64,000 nt of DNA from IMG/VR virus record IMGVR_UViG_3300012931_000667, positions 13,901 to 77,900 of that record, one strand, 5' to 3'. The DNA comes from a virus. The number at the start of each line of letters is the position of its first letter. Positions within the stretch are counted from its first letter, which is position 1. A program made the translations under genes and the position numbers. This document shows positions 586 through 51,165 of the stretch, one piece after another. The notes below the pieces were generated by a model. The model made no database searches, had not been told where the DNA came from, and saw only the letters and a list, made by a program, of their open reading frames with translations.

Positions 586-767
586 ATCCTTAAATCCTTA
601 TTACTATATAGTTAAAAACTTTTATATTAACCCTTTTTTCTATACTTTACTATTTTTTACTATAAAATCAATAAACTATCTGTATCCTCTAATATCTACC
701 ATCATTTAATTATTATTATCATAATATAAAATATTTTAGTATTTCACTCTTGATTTTAGTGTCCATA

Positions 768-1469
768 CTACCATCCTATTTCTTTAGAAATTGTAGGAGT
801 CATACCGCCAAAGGATTGAAATCTAACCATAAAATAATCTGATAATTCTTTAGTAATGAATATTTCATCACCAGCAGGAGAAAACCTATAATAATATGCT
901 AATTGATAATGATTCATACTATCAATTTTAGTTTTTAGTTCATTAATTCTTTCTATAGTCATTATATATACCATTTATCATAATTTAATTCTTCAATTTT
1001 ATTTTGAAGACCTAGATTGTTTATAAATTCTTGAATACCTTTAGGATTCCTATCAAAATCCCAAAAATTACCTTCAAAAATACATTTACCATCTTTACAT
1101 ATTCTCATCATTTCACATTTGGAATCATAAATTATATCAATCATTTTAATATTTCTCTTTCTTGATCTCTATAGTAACAGGTTTATCAGATTCAAAAATA
1201 ACTTTACCATCTACTATTACTTTTGATAATTCTCTTTCTTTATACATACTAATAACATCAGTAAATAAATAATTATTAAAATCAGTAATTAAGTAAGGAG
1301 TACCTTTACCTTCAAAATAACCAACACAAAATACTTCTTTTCTTTCAAAAAGATTTGCATATTGACTACTAACATCAACTCTAGGTGCTAATCCTTGTGA
1401 TAAATATTTATAAATTTCAGGATGACAGTTAAGATAATTCTTAATATTTACAGTTTCAACTTCTTTCAT
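768..1469 (-). other. three small hypothetical phage ORFs (768-974, 962-1144, 1146-1469)
   Basis: Tightly packed same-strand ORFs, no recognisable motifs. Confidence 0.6.
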
Positions 1470-1499
1470 AGTATACCCCTTTTATTTCTAATAAAAAAT

Positions 1500-1527
1500 A
1501 TTATACATAAATTACTAATTTTGTCAA
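1500..1527 (-). promoter_or_regulatory. sigma70-type promoter at the 3' end of the GIY-YIG gene
   Basis: TTGACA (1527-1522), 16 nt spacer, TATAAT (1505-1500), upstream of ORF starting at 1469. Confidence 0.6.
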
Positions 1528-1530
1528 TAG

Positions 1531-2313
1531 TTATCCTTCATAATACATCCAATGAAATCCACCAGCTTTATTTATTTCTCCTCTACAACAAGCTCCAATA
1601 CTTGTTCTATTAACTTTTGTTATTTTTGAAGCTTCATGTATAGATTCATAAACAATATTAGTTTCAATATATAAAACTTTTTTTGAGTTCACATTCAAGT
1701 TCCCTCTTTTACCATACATATGATTTTTTTCACCTAATTGTGCTATAGACATTTTATCTTTATGTTCTTTAGTAAATTTTTTACCTTTTCTTAATATACT
1801 CATTTTTGTTTTTGTTTCTTCTGAAGCTTTTTTTCCTAATTTTGTTTTTCTCATTTTTTCTTTAGATTTTTCAGTATGACTTCTTCCTAACCATATTTTA
1901 TTTCCTTTTTTAATTCTTCTTAAATTGTCTTTAACTTTTTCTGATCTTGGTTTCCCTAATTTTGATAAACTTATTTTTAATTTTGCTTCTTCAGTTAAAC
2001 CTCCATTAGTACCTCCTTCTTTCATATTGTACCCATATTCTTTATTTAGTGTCTTATAGAAACTAATGTAGAAACATTCCAAAATATTTAGAATTAATTG
2101 ATCTTTTCTATTTATGTTTGATAATATCTCAAATTTAAAATTATCTTTTCCATAAGTAATCCAAGATTTTTGTAGATGTTTATTATAATGCTTATTATTA
2201 TTTAATAATTTTTTATGATCTTTCCATCTATTATCAATATTTATGCTTTGACCTATATACTTTTTATTATTAATTAAATTAGTAATACAGTAAATCCCAA
2301 TAATTTTTTCCAT
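1531..2313 (-). CDS. free-standing GIY-YIG homing endonuclease with NUMOD3/NUMOD1-type DNA-binding repeats
   Basis: GIYCITN...KYIGQS..R, E and GYN catalytic motifs; HTEKSKEKM repeats; C-terminal YESIHEAS...CC...AGGFHW. Confidence 0.92.
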   Translation of the reverse strand: MEKIIGIYCITNLINNKKYIGQSINIDNRWKDHKKLLNNNKHYNKHLQKSWITYGKDNFKFEILSNINRKDQLILNILECFYISFYKTLNKEYGYNMKEGGTNGGLTEEAKLKISLSKLGKPRSEKVKDNLRRIKKGNKIWLGRSHTEKSKEKMRKTKLGKKASEETKTKMSILRKGKKFTKEHKDKMSIAQLGEKNHMYGKRGNLNVNSKKVLYIETNIVYESIHEASKITKVNRTSIGACCRGEINKAGGFHWMYYEG

Positions 2314-2429
2314 TATTTTTCCCTTTTAAGTGGTTCCCGCCACTAATACAAATAGTTAAAAAATTAAAAGAGTTAGCTTAAAATTATTAATTTCGAGCAA
2401 CAGGCGGGAACCTGCTGTCCTCTTCTAAT
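2314..2429 (-). ncRNA. structured leader copy A (three-way junction + SD-proximal hairpin, kissing loops UUCCCG/CGGGAA)
   Basis: GAAGAG-GA-CAGCAGG[TTCCCG]CCTGTTG-CTCGAAATT[AAT]AATTTTAAG-CTAA-CTCTTT..TAACTAT..AGTGG[CGGGAA]CCACT-TAAAAGGG..ATG; three homologous covarying copies elsewhere in the window. Confidence 0.85.
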
Positions 2430-5042
2430 TTATAAAGTTTTATCAATATTATTAAAGGAAATTCCCTCCATTCCTAAAAATCCTGCTACTAATCTTTTAG
2501 TTACTAGTTGTCTTTTATGAATAAAAGAACTTAAAATTAAATCCCCTAGTTCATTTTCTTGTATTGCTAATAATCTTTTCATTTTTGTTTGTCTTTTACA
2601 AATTACATTAAAATTTTTATTTTCATACATGTCAATACCATAAATTAGTAATAAATAATCTTTTCCTCTTACTTTAAGAGAAGGCTGTATCATATATCCA
2701 TTTTGAGCATATTGCCTTTGTACTAATGGTTTAAATACAAAACCTTCACCACCATTTTCAGTATACTCTATCCATGAACTAATACAATTATTTATTGATT
2801 TAGGATCATTAAGATTTACATGAATAGACTCTACACATTTAAACTTATCATTTTCAATTGATCGAATGTATCCTAATTTTTCAATGTTGTCAAGTTCTTT
2901 CCCTAATATCCAATCATACTTATTACCAACTTTATCCCCTAATGCTAATATATTAAATACTCTGCAATATGGTTCTTCTTCTGCAATATAATTCTGTAAT
3001 GACTGCATATATTTATCTACATTAATTAATCCATTAACATCTTTTTTAATTGTTCTATCTATAGTAGCACATTCTCCTATACCTTGGAACTTATTTCTAA
3101 TTAACCATTTTCCTTTTAATGACCATGGCATCATTTCAGTATCAAGTATAGTAACGTCATATTCTAATTGATCTACTATTGAATCATAGAATTCTTGATC
3201 CATACTATCATCATCAAAAAATTTATTACCATTACGAGTATTAATATAAATCAATTTATCCATATTAAAATCTTTAGCTATATCTAATGATTTAAATAGT
3301 AATATATGTGCTCGACTACCCATGTACTTCTTTTCTGCTACAAGTTCAGTTATTCCCCTTGATCTATAATAATCAAAAACTGTAGTAGGGTATTCTAGAT
3401 AATCATTATGATCCTTACTAAAGTCTACAGGAGGAACAGTAGGAGCAATATAAAATATATTAGCACTATTAGTAAGGAATGCTCGATTAGAGTATCCATT
3501 AGAAATCTCTTTACCCTCTATGATATAATCACTAACAGGTAAATATATTTGAGAATGAAAACTAGATGTTTTATAACTAAAAGGTAACTTTCTATTAGGA
3601 TCAGAATTAGCAATTACAGCTAATATAGATGGAGTATCATAATAAGGTACTCCACATCCAGGCATATTTGCTCCATCAAGAATCCAACTATGAATAATAC
3701 TTTCTTTTTTATCTTCTGCTAGTTCAATTCCAGCATAACTAATTTCATATTTATTTTTTTCAAAATAACTACTAACTTCACTTTTGAATTGATCCCATGT
3801 AAACTCTATTTTATGCCCTTTATCCCTATAACCATTATTTCCTTGAATCTTTCCACTATCAAATAATTTTGAATTGTAATCATAATTAGGAGTAGTTAAT
3901 ATTATTACTTTAGGATTAATTACATTTATAATAAAATCCATTAATTGTTTTCTTTCATGGTCATCAAAATGCTCTATGATTTCAGATAACAATACAATAT
4001 CTATAGATTGTGGTAGTATTGATACATTAGGATATAGTAAATTCATTTGATAAAAATGAATATGCTTAAATTTATCTAATCCTCTTCCTGCTTTTTCTGA
4101 TGCATCATAAGCATAGATATCAAAAGGAATATTTTCATCTTTTAATTTATCATTTATCATTACTGATAATCTACCATTAGCACAACCATAATCAATAATA
4201 TTTAAATGTTCTGTTACTACTTGTTTTTCTTTTTGCATTAAACTGTAGTACATTACTACCTGATCACTAATCCATTTATGTCGTAATTGATGTAATGTAG
4301 TAAAATCAATATATAGTTGTTCCTTTACTACCTCTTGATCATCATCAATATCAATTACTGATTCTATAAATTTTTTCTCTAATGACTTATTACTTCTGCA
4401 TAATGTACGAATAATATTTTTAGTATAACTATTATCACTTTCTAACCATTGACACATTTTGATATACTTATCTATTTGTTCATCAGAAATAGGAAACATA
4501 TTATAATTAAAAGTAGAGTATAAACAAATCATAAATACTTTCTGTAATGCTACCTGTAATGTACTTTTAATGGTTAGATGTAATCCATAAGCTACATCAA
4601 AATTATCATATGTTTTAAATACATTAAAACCTAATGAACTAAAGACATTATGAATATCTCCAAAATCACATAAAAATGGTCCTATATCAAAACATATATA
4701 CCTTTCTCTAATGGATTCATCTTTAAGAACTGTACCCTTATTCATAAAATTAATAATTTCATCTTTATAATTATTAGTAAAAGCAGAACGTAAACACTCA
4801 TAGATTGAATTTAAAAAATATGGAGTAACCCCATATAACTGATATGAATTATATACTTCTTCATTTCTTTCTTTTAGTGTAGGAAGTAATTCAGTGAAAC
4901 TTAAATTAGAAGTAATACTATACACATTTCCTAAGTATTCTCCTCTTATTTTATTTTTATCATAAATTGATCCTGGCTTTTTGCATAAAAGGTATGAGAA
5001 TATTGAATCATTTTCCTCACCAGAATAAATATTAAAAAACAT
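2430..5042 (-). CDS. Hen1-type RNA 2'-O-methyltransferase fused to a Pnkp-type RNA ligase domain
   Basis: Hen1 N-domain-like FSYLLCKKP; MTase motifs IIDYGCANG, SEIIEHF, TTPNYDYN, YRDKGHKIEFT. Pnkp ligase motifs YIAPTVPP, LEYP..FDYY...G...EKKYMGSRA, EGFVFKP, QPSLKVRGKDYL.LIYG. Confidence 0.88.
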   Translation of the reverse strand: MFFNIYSGEENDSIFSYLLCKKPGSIYDKNKIRGEYLGNVYSITSNLSFTELLPTLKERNEEVYNSYQLYGVTPYFLNSIYECLRSAFTNNYKDEIINFMNKGTVLKDESIRERYICFDIGPFLCDFGDIHNVFSSLGFNVFKTYDNFDVAYGLHLTIKSTLQVALQKVFMICLYSTFNYNMFPISDEQIDKYIKMCQWLESDNSYTKNIIRTLCRSNKSLEKKFIESVIDIDDDQEVVKEQLYIDFTTLHQLRHKWISDQVVMYYSLMQKEKQVVTEHLNIIDYGCANGRLSVMINDKLKDENIPFDIYAYDASEKAGRGLDKFKHIHFYQMNLLYPNVSILPQSIDIVLLSEIIEHFDDHERKQLMDFIINVINPKVIILTTPNYDYNSKLFDSGKIQGNNGYRDKGHKIEFTWDQFKSEVSSYFEKNKYEISYAGIELAEDKKESIIHSWILDGANMPGCGVPYYDTPSILAVIANSDPNRKLPFSYKTSSFHSQIYLPVSDYIIEGKEISNGYSNRAFLTNSANIFYIAPTVPPVDFSKDHNDYLEYPTTVFDYYRSRGITELVAEKKYMGSRAHILLFKSLDIAKDFNMDKLIYINTRNGNKFFDDDSMDQEFYDSIVDQLEYDVTILDTEMMPWSLKGKWLIRNKFQGIGECATIDRTIKKDVNGLINVDKYMQSLQNYIAEEEPYCRVFNILALGDKVGNKYDWILGKELDNIEKLGYIRSIENDKFKCVESIHVNLNDPKSINNCISSWIEYTENGGEGFVFKPLVQRQYAQNGYMIQPSLKVRGKDYLLLIYGIDMYENKNFNVICKRQTKMKRLLAIQENELGDLILSSFIHKRQLVTKRLVAGFLGMEGISFNNIDKTL

Positions 5043-5055
5043 ATGTTACCTACCT

Positions 5056-5499
5056 TTAATTTAAGTATGATAATGGAAATCTTGATATAATAGAATATAG
5101 ATTAGGAGTTACATAATCTTTAGCTTCTTCCATAGTAACATACATAAAATTATCAACTTCTGGACTATTACTATTATCAATAAGGGAATTACATTTTAAA
5201 CTAGATGTAGAAAGTAACCAATTAGAACTATTGTTAGGATTCCAAAATTTTAATTCATATAAAACTAAGAATTTACCCCTAGTATAAGAATGAATACCTA
5301 AAAAATTAATAGAAGAATCATATATATGTCTATTAATATTTGTTTCTTCATATAATTCTCGTGAAGCACATTCTAAATAACTTTCATTATCTTCTTTTAT
5401 ACCTTTTGGGATATCCCACCTAGAAGGATTAGAATTAGTTACATGACAAATTAAGAATTTTTTGGTATCGTGTACTAAAGTTCCACATGTATAGATCAT
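5056..5499 (-). CDS. Nudix hydrolase
   Basis: Nudix box WDIPKGIKEDNESYLECASRELYEETN. Confidence 0.9.
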   Translation of the reverse strand: MIYTCGTLVHDTKKFLICHVTNSNPSRWDIPKGIKEDNESYLECASRELYEETNINRHIYDSSINFLGIHSYTRGKFLVLYELKFWNPNNSSNWLLSTSSLKCNSLIDNSNSPEVDNFMYVTMEEAKDYVTPNLYSIISRFPLSYLN

Positions 5500-5550
5500 A
5501 ATACCTTCTTTATTAAAAATATTTATTGAATTGTATCAGAAATAATTAGT

Positions 5551-6102
5551 CTAGTCTAGTCCATAGGTTTTGATCTTATTAGCAATACCATATTTTATAC
5601 AATCTTTAGCTGTAAAATATTTTTCCTCATATTTTAATTTTATATCTAACATTGATTTAGGTATTCTAGTTTCTTTTTCATATATTGATTTCATAGAGTT
5701 ATTAAATTTAATAGCATAGTCAAGATCATCTTCACTATCACCAAGTTTAGGATCATCATTAGAAGTTCCATGACAAGAATGTATTAAAAATAATGATGAT
5801 GGTGATACATATCTATTTTCTCCTGCTAGATAAAGTAATGTACTAGCAGAACAACAATACCCATTTATGTATGTATTTACTGTTATAGGACAAGTTTTAA
5901 TATAGTCATAAGCTCCACATGGATCACCACCTAGTGAGTCTATCACTATATTTATTTCATCAAAATCTCTCATAGCAATTATTTCCATCATATATAATTG
6001 TAAATGATAAAAGGATACTCTATCTAATTCATCATAGAAAAAGATAGTATTATCTTTTTTATATACTGATATTAGTTCTTCTTTTGATGATCGATCAGCC
6101 AT
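5551..6102 (-). CDS. ClpP-like serine protease
   Basis: IDSLGG, GYCCSASTLLYLAG (catalytic Ser), FLIH (His), YFTAKDCIKYGI. Confidence 0.85.
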   Translation of the reverse strand: MADRSSKEELISVYKKDNTIFFYDELDRVSFYHLQLYMMEIIAMRDFDEINIVIDSLGGDPCGAYDYIKTCPITVNTYINGYCCSASTLLYLAGENRYVSPSSLFLIHSCHGTSNDDPKLGDSEDDLDYAIKFNNSMKSIYEKETRIPKSMLDIKLKYEEKYFTAKDCIKYGIANKIKTYGLD

Positions 6103-6113
6103 AACAATAATAG

Positions 6114-9100
6114 TTAATCAAATTTAATTTCTGATAACTTTATATTTTTCATTTGTTCATCCCTATATTCTTTTGTACAATTTTGACTATAAGTAGGAAT
6201 CTCTAGGTTTAATCTTAATATTTTATTTTGATATTCTTTTGTTTCTTCTAATAGTATACCTTGTAAGTATTCTTTTAATTTTTCTTTAGCAAAATTAATA
6301 TTAAAAGTATATATACTTAAACTATCTATAGACCAACTATACACTCCTTTTTGAATAATATCTAACTGATTTATTGGCAATCGTTTACTACCATTAATAA
6401 TATAATTTTTTTCAGTTTTCTTAACATCTAACTTTTCTATAAAATAATGATAATCATGTTTTTCATAAGGATAATATAAATTAACACAATAAATATAATT
6501 TTCTTCCATTAGATTTTCCTTTATATAGAGTAATTATGAAAAATATTTCTTCTTACCCATCGTTTAAATTCTTTATAATCATAATATAATGTTTTTATTG
6601 TAAATCTTTTTTTAATAATAAGATTCCATATGTTATCTTGTTCACTTCTACATTTTTTCTTACTTATAATTTGATATGTATTTATCCATTGATTTCTACT
6701 TCCCCAAGGAACAACAAAAGAATATTCTTCATGTTCTATTTTAACAGTAGGATCATTTACATTATTTTCATAAATTAAATTGTCATATTCTATAGAAACA
6801 TGAGTAATATCAGGACTTCTTATTAATCTGTCAATAACTTTTTTTGTTATTGTATTATCCCCTAATGGGAAATATAATAATTTATCTAAATCTTCTATTG
6901 AAATAATGAATTTATTAACAATTAAATTTTGTGATAATATATAACTATCAACATATTCTTTTGAAAAACAATTATATAGTATCCAATATTCCTTATCTAA
7001 AAACCAACAAAGACTTCTAATATTTTCAATAGGAATAATTATACTTTCACAATTTTCTAATATTAATTTTACTTTAATTATCTTTTTTGTAATATACATT
7101 ATTTACTATCCTTTTGTGGTTTAATAATTCCCCATTCTGTACCATTATAATTAAAATCAATCAATAATTTTTGTGATGTAGCATTAATTTCTATATGTTT
7201 AACTTCAATTTCTTTACCATTAATTTTTGATTCATCCATTATAGTACCATCATTTCTTATAGCCCCACAATAACAATTGCGTAAATCTTGTTTACATCTA
7301 TTATAAACAATAAAATTACAATTAGGACATTTATAAGCAGTAACAGTCATACTCATATACTTTCCCCTATACCAAAATCTTTATACATCTTATGTAATGG
7401 ACATAAATTAGGATTACAGTTTCCTTCTACATCTTCTTCATTACTTCTATGATTACAGTATACTAACACAGGATCAATTTTATCACCATCATCAGGTTCA
7501 AATTGACCAATAAAATATTCACAATCTTGTCCAAAATAAGTAAAACGTTTATAGCTACCTACTAATTTACCATCATCACTATCAAAATAATGTGCCCACA
7601 TAATTTCTTTATTATTCTTTAAGTAGTTCATTGTATAATCCCAAGAAGAATCATCAAAATCATATTGATAATTTGAATCAAAGTTTGATCCATACCTATG
7701 AGTATGATATATCATTGTGTACTTTTTCATATATTATTTACCTTAATTCATAAATAGTATTTAATGTTTCACACTTATTATTAGTAAAATCAATATTTAA
7801 TATTTTAGAAGATTCTAAATGATGACCACTTTCTATTCGAGGATGCCTTACACAAGTTCCTACTAACATACAAAAATCAGTAATATGCATTATGTCCCAG
7901 TCTTTAATTACAGCTATCGGTTTTTGTACATATTCTTGAACAATCTCACCAGTAGTACTATTAATTATTTTAAACCATTTAATTTCTATTAATTTTTTAA
8001 GGTTATCAATATAGTGTTCTCTAAATTCGATATCATTCATATTTTCTTGAATTACTGAATTCATAGCACTATTAAATCTTATTAATATACAATTATCATA
8101 CATTATATTTACTCCTTATCATCATCAAAATATTTATCAAAATCTTTCCAATCAAATCCAAATTTATTAGCCATATTTTCAATATCAACTTTAGCATCTT
8201 TAGCATTATTTATTATAGTTTCTTTATAACCTTTATTACTAAAAATTGATTGAAACAATGTATTTGCTCCTAGTATAAAGATTTCATATAGTAGGTTATG
8301 TACTCCATCTTCACCATCTTTATATGTAGACTTCTTTATACCAAATTCATATTTACTCTGCATTTCCTTAAACCATATTCCATAGTCTGTAGCTTCTTTT
8401 GGGTATAATTTACATCCTTCTTCAGCTTGCCTATATACATACCAAAAATTAGATAGAAAATTTTGTAAATCAGTTTCAATTTCTTGTTTATTCATTTAAA
8501 TCCAACCTAATTGTTTTGATGCATAGTACATAATGTACAATCCACCAAAGAAAGGAAGTATTTTTAGTAGAAATATATTATAAAATTTAGAAGCTCTAAT
8601 AAAAAAATTTTGAGCAACAAAGTAACAACCTACAATAAAAAGTGCTGATGCCATATTCATATAATCCTCCTATAAAGTATTAAGGCTTAAATTCATCATC
8701 AGATATTTCATCCAATACCCACATTAAAGCTTCTTGTACTCCTTGTTCATAAGTCATAGAAGGATATTTACTTTCTTCTGTTTCTAAATTTAATAAGATA
8801 TCATTAATATCTTTTTCTGTTTTCATACTATAACTCCTTCATTGCTAATTGGTAATCTTTAAAGTACTGACTACCTTTTTCATCATAACACATTGTACAT
8901 ACATATCCAAAATCGATTATGACCTTTAGTGTAGGTTCTTTTTTACTATTACATATTTTACAAGGAGTATTCCTATTATCATTATTAATGAATACTCCCA
9001 TTTTACTTTGTCCTTTTATTTCTGTATTTCTCCATATAGATTTTTCTGTTTATATCAATTTTACTAATTTCAATAACTACTAGTAATCCTAAAACTACAA

Positions 9101-12100
9101 TAGGACTCTCATATTTATCATGAAAATGTTTTATTGTCAAGCCTAATCCAAGTTCATGTCTATTCTTCCCCCACTTTAACCCAAAGCCTAATATAGGGAA
9201 AATTACAGCATTATCACTATAGGTTTCTATATATTTATTTTTCATTTAGTAGTATCCCTAATAAATCAAATCTTATTGCACTTCTAAATGAAGGAATTTC
9301 TTGTTGATTATTAATATAATTATCCATAACAAATTTATGGAACAAATCACAAAAAGTTTTATGATCATCAACAAACTTTTGAGTTAAAGTAATCCCTTCT
9401 AGTATTACTTCAATTCCCATTAACCCTATTGAAAGAAATTGATCTTTAGACAATGACACAATATAGTTTAAACAATCTTCTATTTGCTCACTATTTATAT
9501 AATTACCTATTTTTTTAATTATATCCCATGCTTCATCAGATATATTATCATAAGTATGCATTAATTATTTTCCTTTCTTGTTAACACTTTTAATATATTA
9601 TCAACTTTTTTATCTATCTGTACATTACTTCCCATAGGCCAATATTCTTTTAGTAATAGGGATATTGTAAGTTTTAAGTCATTCTCATCAATAATGATCA
9701 TTTTTCTTCTACTTCTTCTTCTAACACTTCTATAGTAATCTTTATTCTTCTACCCTTATAGTTATTTTCAATAAAATTATCAATATTATCATCATCTATA
9801 TAAAGTCCTTTATCTACATCTGACCAATTACCATATGGATTTCTTCTTACTAATCCATCTAAAGTAGTACTACCAAATTTATAAATAATACTCATTTAGG
9901 ATAATCCTCCTATCCTATTAATTCTACCCAACAATTCTTTTTACCATTCCATTCACCATCTAATGATGCATCTGCCCAACTATACAAATTTTTCATTGCA
10001 TCATCAAAGTTTTCTATTTCACTACCATCATCATTTGATGAAGTAGCAATAATATTAAAATCATCAATAAGAAATTGAATATCTTCATTTAATTTATTAG
10101 GATCAAAAACACTTAGTTTATCAATTAGTACTTTAGCTAATTGTTGAACTGTTATTTCATGGTTTTTGCATTGTTTCCATTCAATACTAATATCTAATTT
10201 TCTAACCCATTGTGCCATTTTATTTACTCCTTTACTTCTTCATAATTAAAGTTTTCATTACCATATTCACCTAGATACCATACTTTATTTAATTCTTTTA
10301 CCTTACTTTCAGCTTCTTTTAAATTATATAAAGTTGCATCTTTTTTATTTATATAACCTCCATTTGTTCTTTCCCATTCACCTTCTTGATAATACCTTTT
10401 ATCCCAACCAATTTCATCACAAGTATCTTTATATATTCTATACTTTTTCATTTACCTTCTCCTTATCTCTTAATTAAATATTCTAATTCTACTATTAATG
10501 CTTCATTTCTTTCATATGCTGTAGAATGATGATTAGGATACCTAGTATACAGATTAGGAGAATAAATTATATTATTCATCATACCATAAATTCCCCACCA
10601 ATACTGTATATCAGGATATCTCTTATTATACTCTGGATCACCATTTACAAATCCATATTTTTTAAGTATATTATCAATATAATCATAAATAGGTGTAGAC
10701 CATTCTTTTAGTCCATCATAAAAACCTTGATGCGAAGCTGTAGATCGTAAACTATAGCAAATTGATAATAGCCCTTGTACATCTTTTATAGCATTATTAG
10801 AAACATTTACTATTTTCTTTGTTTCGTTAGTATCATACATATAACTCATTTAAATATTTCCTTTCCTAATATCACTTTCATTTTTTTCATAATCCATTTA
10901 TTTTTCACATCTTCTAGATATTTATCATAATCATTACCCATTTTTATATAAAAATAATATTCAATACTACTACTGATTTCAGTTAAATAACTATCAGGTA
11001 ACTCTAGTATTAACTCAAATCTTAATCCTTTTCTATATCCATGAAAGTTATCACCATCATAAATAGATATATTTGCTATCAATTTATCATCATAAATATA
11101 GTTTATACTTATACAATTATTATCAAAAGTAGACCAGGTATCAATAATAGTATAATCTATGGGAGATTCCCAATCATAGATATCCTCTTCATGCTTTTTC
11201 TCAAGTATTATAGCATTATTATTTTTTAGTAATTCTACTATTGTGCTAATGTTATTCCAATTATTAGAATCCTTGTATTGAATAGGAGCAAAAGTAAGCA
11301 TTTTTTTCAGAGTAAGAATGTCAATCTTTTTATCTTCCATATAATTTCCCCTTATTTATTTCTATTAATTTCTACAGCACAATCATTACCACCAAAATAA
11401 GAATAAAACACCTGCTTATTATTAATAGAAACTGTCACTCTGCCACCATCATAAAAAAATCCTAAATAATTTATTTTATCTGGTAAATTAATACTTTTTT
11501 CTTCATTATAACAATCATCTTTCCAATTATTAAAAATTAGTTTACTATTCCCATTTTCTTCTTCATTAACTTTTTCCCATGATATAGAGTTTTCATTATG
11601 AATTATTTTATATATATCCCATTTTTTATGCATGGTGTCTCTATATTGTTTAGCACCTTCTAATGAAAATGTAGAAGCATACATAAAAGTAGTATCAGAA
11701 GGATATCCACCTGATGTCTCATCAATACGAATAAAATAATTAGTAGCAGAATCTTTTAATATATACTTATCTTCCATATTATTTTTCTCCTTTACCAAAT
11801 ATGTTCAGAAAATAAACAAGGATGCCAATTTTCTTTTACTATTTCTATTCCTTTTATTTTTGTGTAATTTTCATTCCATTTTTGTTCTGAACATTGATTA
11901 TAATTGAAAGCTTCATAGTATGCTTCTTCTCTAGTTAAAAACTGTAGACTATCATTAATAAACCCTTGTATACAATCTATATGTAATTTTTGTACTACTT
12001 CCCATTCTACACCAGCTTTTCTGTATAGGTCTATTAAATTCTTAAAACAAGCTGAATGATTATTTCCTACAAAAACTCTACTATCTACTAATTTAATTGC

Positions 12101-13933
12101 GGCTGATACTATCATATAAAATTACTTTTTCATTATCAGGAGCATATTGTTTTTTTTCTTCTTCTGTCCAATCAAACTTAATCATTTATTTCTTCTCCTT
12201 TTTTACAATTTCAATCTTATTAATAACAGATATGTCATAAACATCATAAAAGGTATTATCCTTACCCCACCACCAAGCAGTAGCTTTTTCATCTGCTAAA
12301 TACTCTGATTTTGCTTTAATAAAAATTGAACTAATAAAATCTTGTGTGTCATGTCTATAAAAAGATACCTTATACTCATATCCAAAAATTCTATGGTAAA
12401 TTAACTTAAAAAACTGTGTAGGATGCTTTGTATATTTCTTAATCTCATTCTTTATAATTATATATTTATAATTTACTTCTTTTCTTTCTACAGCATACAC
12501 AAACCATAACCATTTAAATACATACTGTCCTCTATCAGGACTCCATGACATACATGGCATATAATGAGGAAAGATATAGAATTTGCCATTAGGGTAAAAC
12601 CTAAATTTAATTTCATTATTACCAGGACGATTATCAAATTTAATCTTCATGTTCTTCCTCTTTTAAGGTAGTCAATAGTAAATTACAAGCTTCATCATCA
12701 GTAAGAACTAATTGATTATATTCTTTCATATCTTCAAAAGGTACAGGTTCTCTTATTTTTTTAATTAATTTCATTGCTTTGTTTCTATTCATCTATTTTC
12801 CTTTGACTACTATTACATTATGGGTATAATCATAAATAACATCTATTACCTCTGTAGCAGGAGTATAACCCATGAATACTTTTTCTCCTATATGAGGAAT
12901 ATATGAAGGATTTTCTATTACTCTTGCTTTTCTAGTATCACTATCAATAGGAAGGGATAATAAAACATCTATATCATCATAGTATACATCAAGTAAAATC
13001 ATTGTCATTTGATACTCCTTAATCATCACTCATTTGAACACAATTACAATTAGGACAAGCAAGTAAAGCTACTCTATGTTCTCCCCCATGATAGCTACTA
13101 TTATCTACTAAAAAAGTTCCATTAATATGTATAAATTTTTTCTTATGATCCTGCATATTACTAATTTTTAAAGCTAATACATTATCATCTTTTTCTTCCC
13201 AATCATGAACATAAAAATAATGGCAAACAGGACAAGTAGTCATATATTTCTCCTATATTTTCTTTAATTCTACATACTTCTTTAGTACTTCTACTATATT
13301 TTTAGGATTACTAAAACCAGCTTGAACCATTTCCAATGATATTGATTCAAATTTCTTTATTTGCTTATATTGAATTAATGAAGCTTTTAATGCAGGAAGA
13401 AAGTCTATGTAGTCTTCTTCTTTTCCAGTATACATCATTATAGGTCGAATATCCATCATTTTGTCAAGAGGATTATTAGTAGTTACCATAGATAAATCAA
13501 TTCCCATTTTTTCAGCTTTTGATCTACGTCTACCCTCTTGCATAGCCTTTTTTTGTGCTTCAGATACTATCCTCCCCTTTCGCTTATCAGCTTTAGGAAG
13601 AGTAGGAGCATTAGGCATAGTAATTGTTTGAATTATAGATTCAGTATGGTATTCTAATACAGATACTTTGGGCTTATTTTTGCTTCCTTTAGGTCTTAAC
13701 ATTTAATTCTCCTTATGTACTGTCATTAGTATATACTTAGGACCATCATGACTATGATCAGCAAAGAAAGCATAAGCTTTTCTATTACCAATATCATTTT
13801 CCATTTTTGCCATTTGTCGTAGTCCTGATGGATATGAAGCACAAAGTAGTTTAGGGTATAGATTTCTTTTTTTAGCATCAGTAAGAAAGGAATAAAGTAC
13901 ATCAATGTTGTTAGTAAAAATCATACCATTCAT
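6114..13933 (-). other. cluster of ~25 small hypothetical phage ORFs, likely early/accessory region
   Basis: Dense co-oriented short ORFs with AGGA/GGAG ribosome-binding sites. Some carry CxxC pairs (7099-7356, 13019-13243); 13253-13702 starts with an AT-hook-like RPKGSKNK. Confidence 0.7.
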
Positions 13934-13964
13934 TTAAATCTTCTCCCTCTCATTTTGTTATATC

Positions 13965-13993
13965 ATAGTACACTACGACTAATAATATGTCAA
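13965..13993 (-). promoter_or_regulatory. sigma70-type promoter heading the small-ORF cluster
   Basis: TTGACA (13993-13988), 17 nt spacer, TACTAT (13970-13965), then GGGAG SD and ATG at 13933. Confidence 0.7.
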
Positions 13994-14221
13994 TATATAA
14001 ATAAAAGTATTTTGATTATATTAAATGGAGATTTTAGATTTATACATTGTATATTTAATCAAATAGTCTTGTTTGATAAACACCAGGGGATACCTCTTGA
14101 AGTTTAGTACCTGGCATTTTAGATAACCTATCTTTTTCAATTTCAAATTCTTGTTCTGTTAATCGTCTACCATTAACAATATATACCTTATTAACATTAG
14201 TATTTTGTACTGTATCACTCA

Positions 14222-14785
14222 TTATAATTTACCCTCTTTATAAAGATTTTCACTAAGTATACTTTGTAGTCTATAATAAGACATTAAAAAAATTAAATCA
14301 TAGTTAGTTTCATAATCAATAATGTTTTTCATTTCTTCCAATGTCATTAATATAGATTCAGATTTTTCCTCATAAATAGTACCATCTCCAGTAGGTTTAC
14401 CAATATCATAAGAGGTAAGACCTAAAATATATAAATTACATCTTATATTACTATTCTTCCATATAGGTAATTCTTTTTCTTTTATATACCATTCTAAATC
14501 AAAGTCATAAATACCACTTTCTTCTTGAATTTCTCGCATCAACCCATCTTCTATACTTTCATTTTCCTCCACCATTCCTGATAATAAGGTAAAATATTTT
14601 TTAACTTCATTATCTTTACAAAAATAAGGAGGACATAATTCAGAACGTACTATAATTTTATTCTCATTTATAAGATAAGGTAATACTATTACTTCTGAAC
14701 CTTCATTTAAAATTTCATAGGGATATTGTATAGGAGAAATAATTGAAAGAAACTTTCCTTTCCATAGTTGTTTAAATGGTATCAT
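14222..14785 (-). CDS. Nudix hydrolase (ADP-ribose pyrophosphatase-like)
   Basis: Nudix box GMVEENESIEDGLMREIQEESG. Confidence 0.85.
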   Translation of the reverse strand: MIPFKQLWKGKFLSIISPIQYPYEILNEGSEVIVLPYLINENKIIVRSELCPPYFCKDNEVKKYFTLLSGMVEENESIEDGLMREIQEESGIYDFDLEWYIKEKELPIWKNSNIRCNLYILGLTSYDIGKPTGDGTIYEEKSESILMTLEEMKNIIDYETNYDLIFLMSYYRLQSILSENLYKEGKL

Positions 14786-14811: not shown

Positions 14812-15846
14812 TTATACATAAAATTGTAATATTTCTTCAATAAATTTTTCTTCCCAATAAGGAATTCTAATTAAGTTAATATTATTATTTTTACAATATT
14901 CATTTTTAGTACTATCCCTTTTTTTAATGAGAATAAGATTTTCTTCCCATCCAAATAAATTAATAGCTTCATAGTGCTGTCTACCATCAAATTCTATTAA
15001 ATACTTTAACTTAACTTTTTCTTTATCTTCAAAAATAGCAAAATCAAAGAATAAGGAATAAACATATTTACAATCCTTAATTTTATATTCCTTAATATAA
15101 AAAATATCATTTTTATTTAGATATTGGGTTATTAAAGTTGCTCCTTTTGATTCTTTTCTATTACTAGTACAAATAGAGCATCCAGAATTAAGAATTACCC
15201 TTGTTTTTATACTTGTATACCACTCATGACCACATTCTTTATTTTTCCACCATGCTTTTTTATCAGTTTTAGGATAAATTCTTTTAGGATCAAGACCTAA
15301 TTTATTATTTTTTTCATAATCCCATTCTAATAATAATTCTGGATACTTAAAATATAGAGATTTTTCAATATTATTACAAATAGAATTAGATTTACCAATT
15401 TGTATCATTCCACAATCATAACATTGATGTAACTGTATTTTCTTATTCCTTAGTCTTCCACTTAAAATTTCAAATTCTTTTCCACAATCACATCTAACAA
15501 GATAAATACATTCCTGTCTTTTAGAATCAACTCCTATTTTTTTTAAAACTAATAATTTATCAAATTTCTGTCCAACTAAATCTTTTTGATATGCTTTACC
15601 CATATTTATATAACTACATTTTTTACAACCTTCTCCTAATAAATCTTTAGAAACACTATGCCAGAAATTTCCATGTAAAAAACAAGTGTATTCTACTAAA
15701 GTTTTAGTAGTATTATATGTTTCATTAAATAATCCTATAACTCCTTTTTCATTTTTATATCTTCCAGTTAAAATAATAGGATTTTCTTTATTTTTCCAAA
15801 TTTCATTATGTCTAAAAATAATTTCTTGTTCTGTTAATTTTCTCAT
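14812..15846 (-). CDS. Zn-ribbon + PD-(D/E)xK/Vsr-like endonuclease, probable free-standing homing endonuclease
   Basis: Repeated Cys/His modules (CFLHG, CKKC, CDCG, CGHEW, CSIC); C-terminal FDFAI...IEFDGRQH...D..KNEYC..NNI.LIRIPYW. Confidence 0.8.
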   Translation of the reverse strand: MRKLTEQEIIFRHNEIWKNKENPIILTGRYKNEKGVIGLFNETYNTTKTLVEYTCFLHGNFWHSVSKDLLGEGCKKCSYINMGKAYQKDLVGQKFDKLLVLKKIGVDSKRQECIYLVRCDCGKEFEILSGRLRNKKIQLHQCYDCGMIQIGKSNSICNNIEKSLYFKYPELLLEWDYEKNNKLGLDPKRIYPKTDKKAWWKNKECGHEWYTSIKTRVILNSGCSICTSNRKESKGATLITQYLNKNDIFYIKEYKIKDCKYVYSLFFDFAIFEDKEKVKLKYLIEFDGRQHYEAINLFGWEENLILIKKRDSTKNEYCKNNNINLIRIPYWEEKFIEEILQFYV

Positions 15847-50202: not shown

Positions 50203-51165
50203 TTGATACAACAAAACGTAATATATAGGGTTAAATCTGGTTCACAACTATATGGGACAAGTACCCCGGAAAGTGATATTGACTATGTATCAGTTTTTAT
50301 TCCTTCTACCTATAACTTACTGTCATTACAATCCTGTGATTTTATAGATATGTCTAGTAAAGGTGCAAAAGAATATAGAAGAAATACTAATCAAGATTGT
50401 GATGATCAATCACATTCTTTATCTAGATATTTAAGTTTAGTAGCACATGGTAATCCTAATTTAACTGAAATACTATTTGCTCCTACTAATGTAATTGAAC
50501 TTGAATTACCTGTTTTTACTGAAATAAAAGAAAATTATAATAAATTACTTTCTACTAAAAAAGTATATGATTCATTTACAGGATTTGCAGTTGCACAAAG
50601 AAAAAAATTAGAGTACAAAAGAGTTAGATATGGAGAATTAGAAATAGCATTACAATATATGCAAGATATATTAGGAGATAAATTAGTTGATAATAAATAT
50701 AAAATGGATCAATGTACAGCAGAAAATTTAAATAGATTACTTCAACATTATAAGGGGAGTAAGAACAATATTGAACATTTTCATGTAGGATTACCATTAA
50801 AAATAATATATGAAAAAATAAAATCAGAATATGAAAATTATGGATGGAGATTACATACTGAATCTTTCAAAATCTTAGGTTATGACACAAAATTTGCATC
50901 ACATACTATTAGACTACTTTTTGAAGGTGAGCAACTATTGTTAAATGGAAAATTAGAATATCCATTACATGATGAAGTATATATTGATATTATGAATATA
51001 AAAAATGGAAAACTATCTATTGAAGAATTTAAATCTATGGCTTATAAATATGAAAATAGATGTAGAGAAGCATTAATGAATTCATCATTGCCTTCAAAAA
51101 CAGATACAAAATGGATAAATAATTGGTTAGTTTCTGTATTAAAAGAATCAATACTAAAGGAGTAA
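50203..51165 (+). CDS. DNA polymerase beta-superfamily nucleotidyltransferase (RlaP-like)
   Basis: SGSQLYGTSTPESDIDY (GS..DxD), GNPN..E.LF, GYDTKFASH.IRLL. Confidence 0.88.
   Translation: MIQQNVIYRVKSGSQLYGTSTPESDIDYVSVFIPSTYNLLSLQSCDFIDMSSKGAKEYRRNTNQDCDDQSHSLSRYLSLVAHGNPNLTEILFAPTNVIELELPVFTEIKENYNKLLSTKKVYDSFTGFAVAQRKKLEYKRVRYGELEIALQYMQDILGDKLVDNKYKMDQCTAENLNRLLQHYKGSKNNIEHFHVGLPLKIIYEKIKSEYENYGWRLHTESFKILGYDTKFASHTIRLLFEGEQLLLNGKLEYPLHDEVYIDIMNIKNGKLSIEEFKSMAYKYENRCREALMNSSLPSKTDTKWINNWLVSVLKESILKE

Follow-up and report, generated by a model that had tools for sequence, protein, structure and literature searches.

Anatomy of the fusion gene

We analysed a 64,000-nucleotide stretch of viral DNA, hereafter the window, which spans bases 13901-77900 of the 77.9-kb IMG/VR virus record IMGVR_UViG_3300012931_000667 (completeness 39%, CheckV). 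On its minus strand, a detail that the preliminary description of this locus had not given, lies a Hen1-ligase fusion gene (P0001; 2430..5042, stop codon included) that reads as a single uninterrupted open reading frame (ORF) of 870 amino acids. The gene carries a Shine-Dalgarno-like site, AGGTAGGT, 6 nucleotides 5' of its ATG, and 13 nucleotides separate it from the end of the upstream gene.

To place the domain boundaries we combined sequence profiles with structure prediction, and these assign to one chain, with high confidence, a Hen1 N-terminal domain, a Hen1 methyltransferase and a Pnkp-type ligase. Matches of both fold and sequence place the predicted Hen1 N-terminal domain, the ligase-activating part of Hen1, at residues 1-245 (4308..5042, minus strand, as are all segments of the gene). 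It is followed by a predicted Hen1-type, Mn-type 2'-O-methyltransferase domain (residues 246-445; 3708..4307), assigned from profile, fold and motifs. A linker (residues 446-492; 3567..3707), partly disordered in the model and of different lengths in the relatives to which it was aligned, leads into a predicted Pnkp-type RNA ligase (adenylyltransferase) domain at residues 493-870 (2433..3566), recognised by PF16542 and by its fold. The predicted acceptor of adenosine monophosphate (AMP) in this domain is K572, encoded at 3327-3329. The Hen1 portion is thus fused in frame to a ligase domain rather than being a separate polypeptide encoded beside a full pnkp, and we found no pnkp gene in the 77.9-kb record.

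Profile matches were consistent with this layout. The Pfam model PNKP_ligase (PF16542) aligned to residues 522-847 (E = 1e-56), and generic S-adenosylmethionine (SAM)-methyltransferase models of Pfam fell on residues 279-394. In NCBIfam, positions 164-448 of the bacterial Hen1 model TIGR04074 matched residues 153-443 (E = 5e-19; 68 bits, below the equivalog cut-off of 340), and the bacterial Pnkp model TIGR04075 matched residues 524-859 (E = 2e-51; 175 bits, below the equivalog cut-off of 750). Only positions 479-843 of TIGR04075 were involved, so both the kinase and the phosphatase parts of Pnkp are unmatched. Consistent with this, Pfam found no P-loop kinase family in the fusion protein, neither Pfam nor NCBIfam found a match to Metallophos, the binuclear metallophosphoesterase module, and a hidden Markov model (HMM) of the kinase-phosphatase had 0 matches among the proteins that we classed as fused. 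Searched against the Protein Data Bank (PDB), a profile built from 11 relatives recovered the ligase domain of C. thermocellum Pnkp (CthPnkp; E = 7e-60), more weakly the Rnl subunit of the Pnkp1-Rnl-Hen1 complex (E = 2e-25), and the Hen1 methyltransferase domains 3jwg/3jwh (E about 1e-24).

From its first residue, the Hen1 half aligns colinearly with bacterial Hen1 proteins whose genes neighbour pnkp, K21 and P23 being invariant. Residues 1-435 are likewise colinear with a stand-alone protein of 438 amino acids that bears Pfam Hen1_L (P0015; 32% identity), for which no locus was found in a scan of viral sequences. In a more divergent fused relative the TIGR04074 match covers positions 11-445, and a further fused relative scores above the cut-off of Pfam Hen1_L (PF12623).

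We modelled the full chain with AlphaFold2 from the 11-relative alignment, obtaining a mean predicted local distance difference test (pLDDT) score of 86.2 and a predicted template modelling score (pTM) of 0.80, with disorder confined to the loop 454-465 (pLDDT below 50) and residues 274-276. When compared by VIA-align, residues 493-870 superimposed on Pnkp-C from the Pnkp-C/Hen1-N heterodimer (4e6n_A residues 453-870) with Z = 43.3 and a root-mean-square deviation (rmsd) of 1.9 Å over 362 aligned residues. As in bacterial Pnkp, the modelled ligase has the distinctive fold with a helical insert and a C-terminal helical module (Z 43 to 4e6n_A). Residues 249-480 matched the Hen1 methyltransferase domains 3jwg/3jwh/3jwj (Z about 20, rmsd 2.0-2.6 Å, 175-184 aligned), and residues 1-211 matched the N-terminal half of bacterial Hen1 (4dqz_A residues 1-223; Z = 18.0, rmsd 1.9 Å, 160 of 171 aligned). 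Foldseek gave a template modelling score of 0.75 between the Hen1 N-domain and 4e6n_B. Profiles, AlphaFold model and fold matches therefore agree with what the preliminary description had read from the letters alone, namely a Hen1 N-domain, a methyltransferase and a Pnkp-type ligase in one protein that lacks the Pnkp kinase and phosphatase domains.

Conservation was assessed in an alignment of 60 diverse fused proteins that are 25-48% identical to the window protein. Ligase residues K572, E636, E766, G767, K790 and R792 are invariant. K572 is the conserved lysine of the EKKYMG motif that had been singled out earlier, and in the PDB profile alignment this lysine of the KxMG motif aligns with the motif-I lysine of CthPnkp. 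Conservation is at least 90% for the methyltransferase residues E354, E357, H358, H410 and E413 and for G286 and G290 of the SAM-binding motif. D284/G286, E354-x2-E357-H358 and H410/E413 are common to bacterial Hen1, and D284 and G286 are invariant in the alignment with those proteins. The E-x2-E-H...H pattern is presumably the Hen1 metal site.

Distribution and origin of the fused family

The preliminary description had implied that such a fusion would be rare, and a survey of its prevalence gave the opposite answer. Ten relatives emerged from a first, word-based search, and an exhaustive profile search of 1.84 billion cluster representatives returned 287 matches at E ≤ 1e-30. We re-scored 162 collected proteins, mostly representatives of 50%-identity clusters, with a separate HMM for each module, and 104 of them had all three modules in one chain. 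Stand-alone Hen1 proteins and stand-alone ligases were also present among the collected proteins. In a FastTree phylogeny of 151 ligase domains, the stand-alone ligases are scattered as sisters of fused ones, and the true Pnkp ligases lie in a 26-leaf region of weak support (0.30), mixed with some fused proteins.

Fused copies with genomic context were all on large viral or virus-like contigs of 32-245 kb, whose completeness estimates imply genomes of roughly 150-400 kb, and the fused clusters that we looked up came nearly all from Logan, JGI or ENA metagenome assemblies. In a scan of one genome per species across 185,579 prokaryote species we obtained 98 matches, all at ≤32% identity. Their matched spans of 3.0-3.9 kb fit two genes, and the three loci that we opened each contained the ordinary pair, with hen1 (439-467 amino acids) directly upstream of a full pnkp (862-875 amino acids). 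Cultured phages in INPHARED contained no fusion, tblastn giving only partial matches to the ligase domain in Vibrio phage sm033 and Xanthomonas phage XacN1, and PHROGs contained no fusion family, with only a generic tRNA methyltransferase family matched. The fusion is thus common in uncultivated large phages and absent from the sampled cellular genomes, and it has no specific name: among 20 fused clusters, one was called 'hypothetical protein', one 'SAM-dependent methyltransferase', and the others had no name. A family of this size without a specific name in its sources is one that annotation pipelines currently miss.

The carrier studied here fits this distribution, and the identical protein is also encoded on a longer contig, of 90.7 kb. 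The DNA is 24% G+C, and genes in the window make up a phage replication and nucleotide-metabolism module that includes NrdD, a DNA polymerase, a clamp loader, Dda-like and DnaB-like helicases and an exonuclease. No cultured phage has a DNA polymerase more than 24% identical to the one encoded here, and a megablast search of the first 12 kb against cultured phages gave no match. Because of this module and the distance of its polymerase from those of cultured phages, the source is a large, deeply divergent, uncultivated phage. The IMG/VR record and the replication module also bear out the earlier assignment of the gene to a phage.

A plausible route to the fused gene is suggested by comparison with bacteria, in which hen1 is followed by pnkp (Figure 1A of PMC3675462). 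The domain order of the fusion is the same as this gene order, and its VIA-align superposition on 4e6n_A indicates that Pnkp is retained from about residue 453 on, just before the ligase domain. Judged from these sequences, the fusion would most simply have arisen from a bacterial hen1-pnkp cassette if the hen1 stop codon and the codons for the kinase and phosphatase were lost in frame.

In the full-text literature we found no description of a Hen1-ligase fusion; the survey of Burroughs and Aravind (2016) was outside the coverage of this search, and an earlier mention there is possible. The paper on the three-protein Pnkp1-Rnl-Hen1 system likewise does not mention one. All parts of the protein come from known families, and what is new is their combination and the phage that carries it.

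Some related loci departed from the simple layout. In one relative (locus L109, 1462-5157, plus strand) the fused gene is a 1232-codon open frame with a LAGLIDADG-type, intein-like insert in the Hen1 N-domain (Pfam LAGLIDADG_3 at residues 321-397); an intein at such a place suggests a host site of importance that is conserved. In another, a 245-kb contig (G007; locus L107, 10001-12827, plus strand), the fusion is spread over overlapping frames of 212 and 734 amino acids near the boundary between Hen1-N and methyltransferase, a split that could be a frameshift, a sequencing error or genuine. What looks like a remnant of a fusion is seen at a third locus (L010, 3021-3903, plus strand), where a piece of Hen1-N runs almost straight into the C-terminal 140 or so residues of the ligase.

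Predicted repair function and its alternatives

In the bacterial system, the Pnkp ligase domain self-adenylylates and cannot seal alone; a flexible insertion module obstructs its active site, and Hen1-N locks this module open. The Hen1 methyltransferase marks the 3'-terminal ribose prior to ligation, and the methylated junction withstands transesterifying RNases (PMC3675462, PMC4411300). By analogy, we consider it probable that the phage fusion is a single-chain RNA repair enzyme that methylates and then seals. In it a complete Hen1 is joined, via a linker of roughly 50 residues, to a Pnkp ligase domain that Hen1-N, being in the same chain, would keep permanently and intramolecularly activated and always in the company of the methyltransferase. 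With the activator built into the chain, the ligase should be competent at all times. Of the Pnkp-C structures, the Hen1-N-bound one is the best fit for the modelled ligase domain (Z 43, 362 residues, versus Z 33-34 and 313-326 residues for free forms), and this fit and the high pTM of the whole chain would be weakly consistent with built-in activation.

Ends would be healed by separate phage enzymes: in relatives by the adjacent HD-Pnk-type phosphoesterase-kinase, and in the source phage perhaps by a lambda-type phosphatase and a kinase yet unseen. The fusion would then put a 2'-O-methyl group on the 3'-terminal ribose and ligate via K572-AMP, producing a junction that the same nuclease could not cut a second time. 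Such an enzyme would serve to undo a host RNase attack and to block its repetition, so that its role is most likely counter-defence; we hold any specific target with less confidence than the repair function itself. The 'seal and immunise' activity against anticodon nucleases proposed in the preliminary description is what homology and gene context would suggest.

We looked for the healing activity around the fused genes of relatives. Of nine independent lineages with usable flanks, five (G001/G002, G005, G006, G007 and L108) have an HD-Pnk-type gene within 4 kb of the fusion. The G005 cluster runs from a metallophosphoesterase through ClpP, the fusion, RecA and an Rnl1-type ligase to a 314-residue protein that combines an HD domain at its N terminus with a P-loop kinase at its C terminus. 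Among the HD-Pnk genes of relatives are those at positions 10803-11747 of locus L006 and 6059-7054 of locus L004. An orthologous or similar HD-plus-kinase protein is encoded 3 kb upstream of the fusion in G001/G002, and downstream of it by 0.8 kb in G006, 1.7 kb in G007 and 1.5 kb in L108. The kinase part of these proteins best matches the kinases of Pnkp1, T4 Pnk and CthPnkp, and all five share an invariant HD signature and P-loop. This architecture is that of Runella HD-Pnk, a characterised bifunctional end-healing enzyme with 2',3'-phosphoesterase and 5'-kinase activities (PMC6097658). The five phage lineages thus resemble the Runella slithyformis HD-Pnk cluster (Munir and Shuman 2017, cited in PMC6097658) in having an HD phosphoesterase-P-loop 5'-kinase gene beside a ligase. 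They differ in the remaining parts, since the Runella cluster pairs HD-Pnk with another type of ligase, Tpt1 and a methyltransferase-HIT protein rather than with Hen1, and the available sequence of the source phage has no HD-Pnk. The proposal that ends are healed in trans, made in the preliminary description, is therefore supported by the neighbours of the fusion in five of nine related lineages and only in part by the source phage itself, where we found the lambda-type phosphatase, beside two RNA ligases, and no kinase in the 77.9 kb of the record.

The same neighbourhoods bear on the possibility that the fusion serves the RNA metabolism of the phage itself, by methylating and joining or circularising phage RNA ends to stabilise them, or by tidying up after phage RNases. 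In its favour, the gene sits in a replication, recombination and nucleotide module, beside genes for DNA ligase, RecA and exonuclease in several relatives, it lies outside any recognisable anti-defence island, and we found no tRNA genes in the window. Its recurrent partners, however, are HD-Pnk, Rnl1-type ligase and RlaP, which are break-repair parts for cyclic-phosphate and 5'-OH termini: Rnl1-type or PF09414 RNA ligases and RlaP occur in the same clusters as the fusion, with RlaP genes 3-8 kb away in G006 and G004. Moreover, the tested biology of both Hen1-Pnkp and T4 Pnkp/Rnl1 is repair of ribotoxin damage only. We therefore regard a role in the phage's own metabolism as unlikely.

Another option is that the protein is mainly a 3'-end methyltransferase shielding RNA from host exonucleases or tailing, its ligase domain doing no more than self-adenylylation or scaffolding. 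There is precedent for silent ligases of this kind, as the isolated CthPnkp ligase domain self-adenylylates with no sealing alone (PMC3675462) and the Runella ligase encoded beside HD-Pnk did not ligate the tested substrates (PMC6097658). In the phage family, by contrast, the nucleotidyl-transferase motif residues are all invariant across 60 divergent members, and the activating Hen1-N is kept in 104 of the 162 collected proteins, as expected under selection for sealing. We consider the shielding role quite improbable. An artefactual origin, whether by chimeric assembly, an overlooked stop codon or frameshift, or gene decay, could cite the split L107 gene and the L010 remnant in its favour and is so improbable as to be negligible: 870 open codons in 24%-GC DNA and the same layout in 104 proteins from many assemblies rule out chance or faulty assembly, and the catalytic residues are conserved and the full-length model is confident.

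Several observations weigh against single-chain repair with healing in trans. Four of the nine lineages (the source phage, G004, L110 and L112) have no HD-Pnk within 10 kb in the available sequence, two of these being fragments of 39% and 17% completeness. In the source phage we found no polynucleotide kinase in the 77.9 kb, whether with AAA_33, the whole Pnkp model, the G001 kinase, an HD-Pnk HMM or an HD-Pnk alignment, which in a record that is 39% complete is no evidence of absence. The natural substrate of lambda phosphatase, the counterpart of the putative healing phosphatase of this phage, is probably not RNA (PMC3675462). A complete 188-kb phage with direct terminal repeats (G003) encodes a stand-alone Pnkp-type ligase of 419 amino acids (locus L007, 9905-11164, plus strand) that shares 40% identity with the ligase domain of the fusion, and neither Hen1 nor HD-Pnk was found in its whole genome; this type of ligase may thus not always need Hen1-N. 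Finally, the better fit to the bound form of Pnkp-C could simply mirror the training of the predictor on 4e6n.

To our knowledge, Hen1-linked repair is the only RNA repair pathway that leaves a mark against recurrence of the same damage, and the Hen1-dependent arrangements described so far are two, both bacterial: Pnkp/Hen1 and Pnkp1/Rnl/Hen1. The phage fusion shares with the first the Hen1 N-domain, the Mn-type 2'-O-methyltransferase and the predicted logic of methylating before sealing. It differs in that bacterial Pnkp/Hen1 consists of two proteins, whereas here one polypeptide without the kinase and binuclear metallophosphoesterase modules would leave healing to separate genes, and in that its carrier is a phage rather than a cell. 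The Pnkp1-Rnl-Hen1 system of Capnocytophaga gingivalis (4xru/4xrp, PMC4411300) likewise keeps the ligase apart from the kinase-phosphatase, which shows that the four activities can be divided otherwise among polypeptides. It is, however, a heterohexamer of a stand-alone Rnl with separate Hen1 and Pnkp1, whereas the phage ligase is fused to Hen1 and is nearer to Pnkp-C than to Rnl (E = 7e-60 versus 2e-25; Z 43 versus 33 by VIA-align). We found no Pnkp1 homologue in the record.

The closest phage parallel is T4, in which Pnkp (PseT) and Rnl1 form a heal-and-seal pathway against the anticodon nuclease PrrC; the source phage and several relatives carry an Rnl1-type ligase near the fusion. T4 differs in that its ligase belongs to another family and its healing enzyme is a kinase-HAD phosphatase rather than HD-Pnk. 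It also adds no methyl mark, so that a repaired tRNA can be cut again.

We judge the chances to be even that the fused chain and a separate HD-Pnk constitute a third Hen1-dependent RNA repair architecture, perhaps confined to phages, by which large phages would protect host or phage RNAs permanently against a defence RNase. Equally balanced, in our estimate, is the corresponding division of labour, in which HD-Pnk would heal both ends and one self-activated chain would methylate and seal, making it a natural, constitutively active ligase. If true, activator, methyltransferase and ligase would be one chain in this third arrangement, with healing outsourced, often to HD-Pnk. The pathway would also become part of the contest between phages and their hosts, improving on the T4 Pnkp/Rnl1 strategy against anticodon nucleases and further RNases that form cyclic phosphates. 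A single chain with a perhaps partner-free ligase makes the model in which Hen1-N unlocks the ligase directly testable by deletion, and might furnish a tool for RNA ligation with a site-specific 2'-O-methyl group.

Other genes around the fusion

Down the minus strand, the genes of the source phage are a ClpP-like protease, a NUDIX hydrolase, the fusion, a GIY-YIG homing endonuclease, small ORFs, TnpB and further small ORFs, followed by an intein-bearing RecA, the lambda-type phosphatase, a PF09414 RNA ligase, an 87-residue ORF and a T4 Rnl1-type RNA ligase. RecA and the genes after it are situated just upstream of the window (locus L011; positions 740-3181, 4798-5925, 6203-6838, 6864-7529 and 7840-10188 of the record). 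Here RecA contains a LAGLIDADG intein (782 amino acids), a DegT-type aminotransferase also contains an intein (813 amino acids), and between the two are the lambda-type phosphatase, the PF09414 RNA ligase (211 amino acids) and the T4 Rnl1-type ligase (375 amino acids). Together with the ligase domain of the fusion, the source phage thus has three ligases that belong to RNA-ligase families. Homology of the phosphatase to lambda phosphatase is clear (1g5b, E = 7e-24). Lambda phosphatase shares a fold family with the 2',3'-phosphatase of Pnkp and hydrolyses nucleoside 2',3'-cyclic phosphates (PMC3675462). We considered a phosphatase as a conserved neighbour of the fusion and rejected this, the lambda-type phosphatase of the source phage and the metallophosphoesterase of G005 sharing nothing detectable beyond the superfamily motif.

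The NUDIX hydrolase gene (5056..5499, minus strand; 147 amino acids; Pfam NUDIX, E = 2e-10) is the one that ends 13 nucleotides upstream of the fusion, and the two are probably co-transcribed. It does not lie beside the fusion in the relatives examined, and we rejected it as a conserved partner. Further upstream, the ClpP-like protease gene (5551..6102, minus strand; 183 amino acids; Pfam CLP_protease, E = 3e-17) is syntenic with relative G005 (locus L006), where the same family is encoded directly upstream of the fusion.

The next gene downstream of the fusion is the GIY-YIG/NUMOD3 homing endonuclease gene (1531-2313, minus strand). The TnpB gene, which encodes 401 amino acids with a Cas12f1-like TNB domain, occupies positions 1-585 on the minus strand and continues upstream of the window (13280-14485 of the record). 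It stands between the fusion and the RecA/RNA-ligase block, and relative G001 also has a TnpB gene downstream of its fusion. Other genes recorded next to fusions in relatives were a NADAR-domain gene, like T4 gp30.3, directly downstream in G006 (locus L106, 12695-13183, plus strand), and DNA ligase genes, which lie upstream, at 5.7 kb in G001 and just ahead of the fusion in G007 and G004.

At a greater distance, the window encodes an RlaP protein (RNA-ligase-associated Pol-beta nucleotidyltransferase; 50203..51165, plus strand; 320 amino acids) that matches Pfam PF10127 above its cut-off (E = 4e-18) and belongs, though far from the fusion, to the RNA-end toolkit of this phage. Pfam describes this family as an enzyme of RNA repair pathways, and according to a preprint it adds nucleotides to RNA 3' ends (PMC12776372). 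A DUF4379 treble-clef zinc finger protein of 344 amino acids, with a weak match to DUF2726, is encoded at 14812-15846 on the minus strand.

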